From IMG/VR virus record IMGVR_UViG_3300028797_000632, positions 1 to 23,973 of that record: a DNA stretch of 23,973 nt, one strand, 5' to 3'. The notes beneath the pieces are model-generated. The model had not been told where the DNA came from, did not search any database, and saw only the letters and a program-made list of their open reading frames with translations. This DNA comes from a virus. Positions 21,424 through 22,598 of this stretch are shown one piece after another (positions within the stretch are counted from its first letter, which is position 1; the number at the start of each line of letters is the position of its first letter). A program made the position numbers and the translations under genes.

Positions 21424-21886
21424 AATTACATCCTTTATATGGTTCTGGTAGTGGCATCCATGCAGTAACCTTGTAATCTGGAAAAGCGTATTTTTTATCC
21501 CAGTTCCATGAGCCATCATATGTACAAGCTACATCTGTCACTTTGTCACCGTTTATTTCAATGGTAACGATGACATAATCCGATCTTTTGTTTATACCAA
21601 GTTTTTTAAGTATTCCAGTGTCTTTTTCTTCTGGCAGCTTTTCATCGCATGGTATCCACTGTAAAGATAAGTCGATATCATTAAGAGCAACACAATTCAA
21701 TATCTCTACATCCTCTTCACCCTCATTCCAATCTTGCAACCAAACATAGTCGCATCCGTTCTCGACAATTAGAATCTCATTTGTATATCTATATTCTGTT
21801 TCATGATTATATTTAAGTTTGATTTCAACAATGTATGTTTGAAGCGGTTGTTTTCTAATATATTTGTTAAACTCTTCAATCGTCAT
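21416..21886 (-). CDS. DUF551-like protein with a distinct N-terminal domain
   Basis: ...LQWIPCDEKLPEEKD...KVTAWMPLPEPYKGCNYE. Confidence 0.6.
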   Translation of the reverse strand: MTIEEFNKYIRKQPLQTYIVEIKLKYNHETEYRYTNEILIVENGCDYVWLQDWNEGEEDVEILNCVALNDIDLSLQWIPCDEKLPEEKDTGILKKLGINKRSDYVIVTIEINGDKVTDVACTYDGSWNWDKKYAFPDYKVTAWMPLPEPYKGCNYE

Positions 21887-22055
21887 TTTTTATTTCTCCG
21901 TAAAACAATTCCATCAATCGTCTTCTACACCTAGGACAAATAGTTGTCGGGTCATTGATTTCCATAAGATTAAACACCTCTCCGCAGATACAACACTCTC
22001 TTCCAAATTCTGTTTTATCTGGTATATCAATATGTATAGTATTTACTAATTCAGA
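21876..22055 (-). CDS. small zinc-ribbon protein (CCICGE...CPRCRRR)
   Basis: The likely start is MSELVNTIHID, preceded by GGAAGGGGGAAAT-ATG. The track begins at a TTG further upstream. Confidence 0.45.
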   Translation of the reverse strand, partial: SELVNTIHIDIPDKTEFGRECCICGEVFNLMEINDPTTICPRCRRRLMELFYGEIKNDD

Positions 22056-22076
22056 CATATTTCCCCCTTCCAAGCA

Positions 22077-22598
22077 CTATTTGTTATACCAACAGACATA
22101 TGGATATTTTTCCTTCGCTTTGTTTAAGTTACATTTCCAGACGCTAACAGATGTCTCGTTCTCACCGTCATGGAAATATCCTGTGCCGTCATCCGAAATA
22201 ATACTTCCTCTTCTTACACAATCAATAAATTCTTGAGTTGTATAAACATGTCCAATACAATTTTTTTGGATTTCTTCTTTAGCTTTCGTTTCCCCCTTAT
22301 ACGGTTCAGGCAACGGCACCCATGCACATCCTTTAATGTCTTGCAGATAGTGGTGTATTCCGTCAATATACCCAATGTGCCATACTCCTTCTGGATTTCC
22401 ATCACCGTAATACTCTGCTAAAAACATATCATTCGGCTCTGACAATAAGACTTTTTTTCCTATCTCTGGCAACCTCTCACTACATGGTATCCACTGTGAC
22501 ACTGTTGGCATTTCCTCGATAATATCAAGAGTGTCATTACAATGGTCAATGCGGTGTATTATCTCCATCCATAACGCATCAGCATCAATTAACCTCAT
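22077..22598 (-). CDS. DUF551-like protein (MRLIDADAL N-module); the only long gene in the window terminated by TAG
   Basis: MRLIDADALWMEIIHRID...VSQWIPCSERLPEIGKK...CAWVPLPEPYKGE. The stop is TAG at 22077-22079, in frame with the following zinc-ribbon ORF (TAG-TGC-TTG-GAA-GGG-GGA-AAT-ATG). Confidence 0.6.
   Translation of the reverse strand: MRLIDADALWMEIIHRIDHCNDTLDIIEEMPTVSQWIPCSERLPEIGKKVLLSEPNDMFLAEYYGDGNPEGVWHIGYIDGIHHYLQDIKGCAWVPLPEPYKGETKAKEEIQKNCIGHVYTTQEFIDCVRRGSIISDDGTGYFHDGENETSVSVWKCNLNKAKEKYPYVCWYNK

Follow-up and report, generated by a model that had tools for sequence, protein, structure and literature searches.

A TAG-terminated DUF551 gene in frame with a zinc-ribbon ORF on a phage contig with its own amber-suppressor tRNA: a predicted, probably incidental fusion

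The gene pair at the amber stop

The window analysed here is the whole of a 23,973-bp stretch of viral DNA (IMG/VR record IMGVR_UViG_3300028797_000632), a complete contig of about 38% G+C in which every gene lies on the minus strand. Among its small genes is a DUF551 gene that ends in TAG and is followed, across a short spacer, by an ORF for a C4 zinc-ribbon protein (Table 1). The ATG of the DUF551 ORF is preceded by AAGGAGG and its last codons are TGG TAT AAC AAA TAG; reading on past the TAG gives TGC TTG GAA GGG GGA AAT, and then the ATG TCT GAA of the zinc-ribbon ORF at 22058. The initial annotation had described an in-frame arrangement, a six-codon linker holding the Shine-Dalgarno (SD) sequence of the downstream ORF, and a read-through product of about 27 kDa, and in these respects the sequence is as described: the CLEGGN codons include GGAAGGGGGA, and the product computed with glutamine at the TAG has 240 aa and a mass of 27.75 kDa, against 20.0 and 7.0 kDa for the separate proteins. 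The predicted Gln-bridged junction would read ...YPYVCWYNK-Q-CLEGGNMSELVNTIHIDIPDK. The chance of an in-frame neighbour with no stop over six codons is about 0.25-0.3 (one in three to four), and hence the in-frame arrangement is not significant on its own.

The 173-aa protein matches Pfam PF04448 (DUF551) over residues 35-99 with 30.9 bits against a gathering cut-off of 22, while its C-terminal domain of about 70 aa occurs elsewhere only in the close homologues P0001 and P0002. Four other DUF551 paralogues in the window score 33-40 bits and, as initially annotated, stop at TAA or TGA. The 60-aa protein has two CxxC knuckles (CCICGE and CPRCRR), the four cysteines of which are invariant across 14 homologues, and scores below threshold against all Pfam zinc-ribbon models, the best being Zn_ribbon_8 with 19.2 bits against a cut-off of 34.4.

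Both genes lie in an array in which small ORFs, zinc-ribbon and other, stand between five DUF551 paralogues. The array is also found in the related contigs L001, L002 and L008-L011 and is strongly mosaic between co-occurring strains; in the protein P0003, for instance, the N-terminus is that of the 156-aa paralogue and the core that of the 173-aa paralogue. An N-terminal (R)LIDADAL motif is common to several paralogues, and the codons for the conserved DUF551 C-terminal motif, Y-K-G/E-E (AAGGAGG or AAGGGGGAG), at the same time provide the next gene with its SD. The counterpart in L002/L003 of a 65-aa ORF of the array, matched by position and length only, is recorded with a match to the Lar-type restriction-alleviation family (PF14354); if this equivalence holds, the array may include anti-defence functions.

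Table 1. Location of the features discussed, in the window and in related contigs
Feature	Contig	Position	Strand	Description
DUF551 array	window	19205..23720	(-)	five DUF551 paralogues with small zinc-ribbon and other ORFs
DUF551 gene	window	22077..22598	(-)	173 aa; Pfam DUF551; end ...YPYVCWYNK-TAG
TAG codon of DUF551 gene	window	22077..22079	(-)	sole terminal TAG among the window's 45 genes; next base T
Spacer	window	22059..22076	(-)	18 nt, TGCTTGGAAGGGGGAAAT; CLEGGN if translated; contains Shine-Dalgarno-like GGAAGGGGGA of the zinc-ribbon ORF
C4 zinc-ribbon ORF	window	21876..22058	(-)	60 aa, MSELVN...CCICGE...CPRCRRR; stop TGA at 21878..21876
65-aa ORF	window	19710..19907	(-)	in the DUF551 array
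SegE-type GIY-YIG gene	window	13638..14921	(-)	427 codons; in-frame TAGs at 14765..14763 and 14651..14649, within the GIY-YIG domain
Short TAG-ended ORF	window	14921..14763	(-)	52 aa; N-terminal piece of the SegE-type gene
SegE-type gene, orthologue	L001	6438..7724
SegE-type gene, orthologue	L009	4699..5985
ORF flanking insert	window	10522..10322	(-)	piece of ThyX-like gene
Insert in ThyX-like gene	window	9122..10321	(-)	about 1.2 kb; carries the one-TAG GIY-YIG gene
GIY-YIG homing-endonuclease gene	window	9272..10195	(-)	307 codons; one in-frame TAG at 9961..9959
Short TAG-ended ORF	window	10195..9959	(-)	78 aa; N-terminal piece of the one-TAG GIY-YIG gene
ORF flanking insert	window	9121..8684	(-)	piece of ThyX-like gene
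Mini-ORF	window	6894..6974	(-)	14 codons; stop TAG at 6932..6930
tRNA(CUA)	window	6761..6851	(-)	91 nt; amber suppressor; ARAGORN and Rfam
tRNA(CUA), further copy	L036	6806..6896
Second, unrelated tRNA(CUA)	L039	4113..4204
Methyltransferase and integrase-family genes	L012	16082..19155		beyond window position 1; same strand
P0135	L040	205..438		77-aa zinc-ribbon homologue

Decoding of TAG in the window and its relatives

TAG is rare as a terminator in this DNA. Of the 45 genes in a curated set, 25 stop at TAA, 19 at TGA and 1 at TAG; so low a TAG count has a probability of about 0.006 if the TAG share were 15%. The DUF551 gene had been called the only long gene ending in TAG, which holds for ORFs of at least 80 aa; the two shorter TAG-ended ORFs are both N-terminal pieces of homing-endonuclease genes that stay open in frame beyond the TAG. 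Within genes, 3 of 7,307 codons are TAG, the sole in-frame stops, and all three fall in two mobile endonuclease genes; out of frame the triplet is common, with 224 occurrences. Reading TAG as sense therefore has a small effect within the window itself, repairing these two genes.

The single TAG of the first endonuclease gene has the catalytic Glu of an I-TevI-type domain on one side and its conserved Asn on the other, the alignment with the crystallised I-TevI catalytic domain runs through it unbroken, and the 196-codon piece downstream has no SD of its own. The second, SegE-type gene has an orthologue in L001 and L009 with His and Ile codons at the window's two TAG sites and with TAGs of its own at codon 3 and at the position of a GAG in the window. 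All five endonuclease interruptions, in the window and in L001/L009, are thus TAG, with no TAA, TGA or frameshift among them. Since the window's three in-frame TAGs lie inside conserved GIY-YIG domains, the sequences show that TAG is decoded in this phage; opposite these three stand K, H and I, at variable positions that are uninformative on the residue inserted.

Two further observations concern the endonuclease genes. The SegE-type domain continues, in a single frame, into a 316-aa region for which no Pfam or PHROG match was found; its orthologues carry TAGs at differing positions, including codon 3 and the junction of the two regions, and standard-code calls cut the gene into pieces of 52-88 aa and 315-316 aa. 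The other endonuclease gene is carried by an insert in a ThyX-like gene (a weak match to Pfam Thy1), which is intact in L009 (205 aa) and is split in the window into pieces of 66 and 145 aa, with 82% and 76% identity to the protein of L009. The insert has the look of a group I intron that carries a homing-endonuclease gene; a search for such an intron around it gave no Rfam match.

A means of decoding is present on the contig. The tRNA(CUA) gene scores 58.9 bits against a cut-off of 29 with Rfam RF00005 and has the acceptor stem and D arm of a bacterial tRNA-Trp, with A1-U72 and discriminator G73, together with about 20 extra nt in a variable arm that the cellular tRNA-Trp genes aligned with it do not have. 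A 19-mer scan of GTDB genomes found its first 19 nt, without mismatch, at 20 loci; 18 of these were scanned, and in 17 of them the 19-mer forms the 5' end of a tRNA-Trp(CCA) gene. Outside the window the suppressor gene is conserved (L012-L014 and L036), three of the copies being identical to it; in IMGVR_UViG_3300031867_000640 it has two substitutions, both in loops, and wholly different flanks. Searches of E. coli genomes returned no match to it, and those of phage tRNAs insignificant matches only. A second, unrelated tRNA(CUA) in L039 apparently also has a long variable arm, and the occurrence of the arm in two unrelated sequences suggests that it may be a functional feature of the suppressor tRNAs of this clade. 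Just upstream of the suppressor in the window lies a mini-ORF (MWHKYMICCRGDGG) with a strong SD, TAAGGAGG, whose TAG stop is followed by 11 in-frame codons to a TGA; it is not present in the L036 tRNA context. It might sense suppression, or may be due to chance.

The window shows synteny with L005, which comes from the 205-kb contig IMGVR_UViG_3300021387_000118; an 811-aa protein (59% identity), a ligase and ThyA are common to both. Late-gene regions of four contigs (L036-L039, of which L038 belongs to the same 205-kb contig as L005) were reached through a portal-like gene adjoining the tRNA in L035. With coding-strand ORFs of 100 aa or more counted, ORF cover in L036 rises from 8,952 bp under code 11 to 15,744 of 16,489 bp with TAG as sense; the pattern in L037-L039 is alike, code 11 shattering genes that are joined when TAG is sense, and in all four regions only the latter reading restores near-complete coding without raising the number of ORFs. 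Up to 15 in-frame TAGs occur in one late gene. Where the orthologue does not itself have TAG, the residue opposite is Gln in 87 of 140 cases, against a background of 2.9%, and never Trp. From these relatives, at 59% identity in the 811-aa marker, we infer that this is one of a clade of phages in which TAG is reassigned to Gln (genetic code 15).

The base that follows TAG was considered as a means of telling sense from stop and was dropped. It is a purine at all five endonuclease TAGs and T at the DUF551 TAG, but 138 sense TAGs in the relatives are followed by bases at background frequency (T 26%), and with T after about 50% of terminal TAA and TGA codons in related contigs, the likelihood ratio in favour of 'stop' is only about 2.

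The junction among relatives and the search for fused proteins

Few relatives of the gene pair were recovered, giving six informative contexts. The in-frame arrangement, whose loss in relatives the initial annotation had counted as evidence against the fusion, is present in the window and in L002/L003, where the DUF551 TAG and the 18-nt spacer recur, and is absent from L001 and from L008-L011. In L001, the DUF551 gene stops at TAA, the spacer is 17 nt and the zinc-ribbon ORF is out of frame, with a TAATG overlap; identity to the window is 99.4% in the DUF551 coding sequence and 96.2% in the downstream coding sequence but 81% in the stop and spacer, so that the junction evolves like a non-coding spacer. 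In L008, L009, L010 and L011 a different DUF551 gene, of the 139-aa type and ending AAT TAG TAA, overlaps the start of the zinc-ribbon ORF out of frame. The ORF hence stands in three frame relations to upstream gene ends across these contigs.

What travels with the zinc-ribbon ORF is its initiation region. The block GGAAGGGG(G)A...ATG TCT GAA TTA GTA is conserved in six contigs along with the whole ORF, and the purine-rich SD, the ATG and the MSELVN start are kept in all six contexts, with upstream sequence that is unrelated between the two groups. The spacer 11-mer TGGAAGGGGGA serves in L008, L010 and L011 as the 3' end of the different DUF551 gene. This double use, together with the conserved SD and ATG, argues that the 'linker' is the travelling ribosome-binding region of a zinc-ribbon module.

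The two lineages with TAG differ in the upstream gene: over the last 74 codons, the DUF551 genes of L002 and the window are 74% identical in nucleotides, yet the ...WYNK TAG ending is kept. Past this point divergence almost ceases, the stop and spacer being identical at 20 of 21 nt and the zinc-ribbon ORF at 183 of 183; the sole spacer difference (TGC/TGT) is synonymous in the read-through frame. Spacer and ORF are thus in essence one recent block common to both lineages, so that retention of the frame reflects shared ancestry and is not independent evidence.

An exhaustive phmmer search with the 60-aa protein among 1.84 billion representative proteins yielded 17 hits, of which 14 are stand-alone proteins (43-77 aa) that share GRxCxICG...ICPEC..RL..LLY and in most cases match over the greater part of their length. 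The three long ones are matched only over short Cys-rich stretches; DUF551 was found in none of the 17. A fused DUF551-zinc-ribbon homologue, which the initial annotation proposed to look for, is therefore lacking for this 60-aa family in that set. Megablast of the whole window against the INPHARED phages returned no match, tblastn with the fusion sequence found only weak DUF551 matches in the phage collection, and relatives of the zinc-ribbon ORF numbered none in IMG/VR and, in a JGI metagenome scan, only two contigs that were already known.

One distant protein, P0101, combines PF04448 above its cut-off with a different C-terminal zinc ribbon, PF13240, at 24.9 bits against a cut-off of 25 and thus marginally below it; as this architecture occurs naturally, the fusion product could be functional. 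A 144-aa ORF in L009 resembles, on visual inspection, the tail of a DUF551 protein with CxxC...CxxC after it; it has no Pfam match, and was not counted as a fusion. In the zinc-ribbon homologue P0135, AWKPLPLTYE stands directly before the ribbon and resembles, by eye, the DUF551 C-terminal AWMPLPEPYK; it is possibly a relic of a past DUF551-zinc-ribbon junction. The P0135 gene comes with an SD of its own, and a second zinc-ribbon copy is found directly upstream.

Origin and meaning of the predicted fusion

The three facts of a tRNA(CUA) on the contig, TAG decoding and recoded relatives make read-through mechanistically plausible, and with a TAG-reading tRNA of the phage's own the fused protein can probably form; judging by the sequences, read-through would be near-complete if the mRNA were translated after the code switch. 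To this extent the suggestion of a suppression-dependent fusion is borne out, although not as a fusion that is designed or conserved. The account that we favour, with moderate confidence, is of two cistrons in which TAG is an ordinary stop under the host code and is later read as Gln to give a non-conserved 240-aa by-product. The DUF551 gene and the zinc-ribbon ORF would each be a cistron in its own right, within a hypervariable early-region array of small genes. Under the standard code of the host, with RF1 active and little suppressor tRNA, translation would stop at UAG to give the 173-aa protein, and the 60-aa protein would be made from its own start; as the phage tRNA(CUA) accumulates, Gln would be inserted at UAG and translation would continue through CLEGGN into the zinc-ribbon ORF, producing a fusion of 240 aa and 27.8 kDa. 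The in-frame relation would most likely have arisen from module shuffling within the SD region, and the fusion would be tolerated rather than conserved by design. Two findings count against the by-product account: a stop prone to read-through should be selected against, and both the TAG and the frame survive in L002/L003 despite the divergence of the DUF551 genes; and the domain combination of P0101 suggests that a fused product could work.

It is also conceivable, although we consider it unlikely, that no meaningful read-through takes place, either because the array is translated only before the suppressor is active or because RF1 wins at UAG-U, leaving the 173-aa and 60-aa proteins only. The array does head, on the upstream side, a long run of co-directional genes of early type (nucleotide metabolism, ligase, ribonucleotide reductase), the early genes of recoded phages fit the standard code according to a preprint (bioRxiv 10.1101/2021.08.26.457843), and the T after the DUF551 TAG leans slightly towards 'stop'. 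Against this, the density of TAGs in the late genes of relatives means that decoding must become very efficient, any mRNA still translated at that time would be read through, and both endonuclease genes with in-frame TAGs sit in the same early-type block. Promoter and terminator scans performed at chance level and gave no information on the timing of expression.

Rather improbable, in our estimation, is that the TAG has been kept on purpose, giving separate proteins early and a DUF551-zinc-ribbon fusion late, so that the code switch times protein architecture. This would accord with the uniqueness of the terminal TAG among 45 genes, its retention with the frame in two lineages whose upstream genes have diverged, the synonymous spacer difference, the domain combination in P0101 and the published model of recoding as a timing regulator (bioRxiv 10.1101/2021.08.26.457843). 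It is opposed by the nearest relative, L001, which has lost both TAG and frame with neither protein otherwise changed, by the four contigs with the zinc-ribbon ORF out of frame with another DUF551 gene, by the representative proteins, none of which has a fusion to this zinc-ribbon family, and by the near-identity of spacer and ORF that points to shared ancestry. Finally, a standard code throughout, with an inactive tRNA(CUA), endonuclease genes that are decaying pseudogenes and a TAG that is simply a stop, would suit the scarcity of in-frame TAG and its confinement to mobile genes that often decay, but is very hard to credit given that all five interruptions are TAG, that the tRNA persists in another genomic setting with substitutions in loops only, that TAG stops are depleted and that the relatives are clearly recoded.

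The by-product account can be set beside known cases of programmed read-through, such as the A1 protein of Q-beta (UGA of the coat gene) and retroviral gag-pol. These resemble the present locus in that a leaky stop in frame with coding sequence gives a C-terminally extended minor or alternative product. Their extension lacks initiation signals and their layout is conserved, whereas the zinc-ribbon ORF is a mobile cistron that stands by itself, equipped with SD and ATG, the closest relative does not keep the arrangement, and read-through would use a cognate tRNA encoded by the phage and not a near-cognate tRNA of the host. The suppressor itself recalls E. coli su+7, a tRNA-Trp whose anticodon is mutated to CUA and which inserts mainly Gln. 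The phage tRNA likewise combines CUA with a tRNA-Trp body (A1-U72, G73), and TAG in its clade aligns with Gln, never with Trp; it differs in the extra variable arm of about 20 nt.

The closest parallel is with the code 15 phages (crAss-like, Garnet, Topaz and others), on which work is reported by Borges et al. and by Peters et al. (PMC9523058). For these, the preprint of Borges et al. (bioRxiv 10.1101/2021.08.26.457843) describes early genes that are compatible with the standard code, late genes that are recoded and a suppressor tRNA of the phage, and proposes that recoding regulates the timing of expression. Features in common are a phage tRNA(CUA), depletion of TAG as a terminator, an early or replication region that is nearly free of TAG, TAG-dense late genes in the relatives with TAG aligned to Gln, and an integrase gene without TAG, found in L012 just beyond the window; TAG may legitimately terminate integrase genes, according to a remark in the same source. 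The window differs in that its in-frame TAGs are confined to two homing-endonuclease genes, that its suppressor combines a tRNA-Trp body and a long variable arm, and that the terminal TAG of an early-type gene would yield a two-gene fusion upon the code switch, a consequence of which no discussion was found in the available part of that preprint. L012 is near-identical to the window and encodes, beyond window position 1, an N6/N4 DNA methyltransferase and a 411-aa protein of the tyrosine-integrase family, which suggests that this relative of the 205-kb phage contig is temperate or integrative.

The fusion is a plausible local consequence of a TAG=Gln code and not a new mechanism, and the phage joins a known class of recoded phages. 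As the fusion is probably incidental, its practical value lies mostly in annotation: gene calling under the standard code cuts two homing-endonuclease genes short in the window and shatters the late genes in related contigs. The locus also illustrates a little-discussed consequence of code switching, which is that early genes ending in TAG become extended into whatever follows in frame, and such stops are accordingly almost purged (1 of 45 here). If the fusion were selected, codon reassignment would change protein architecture over time, and not just abundance.
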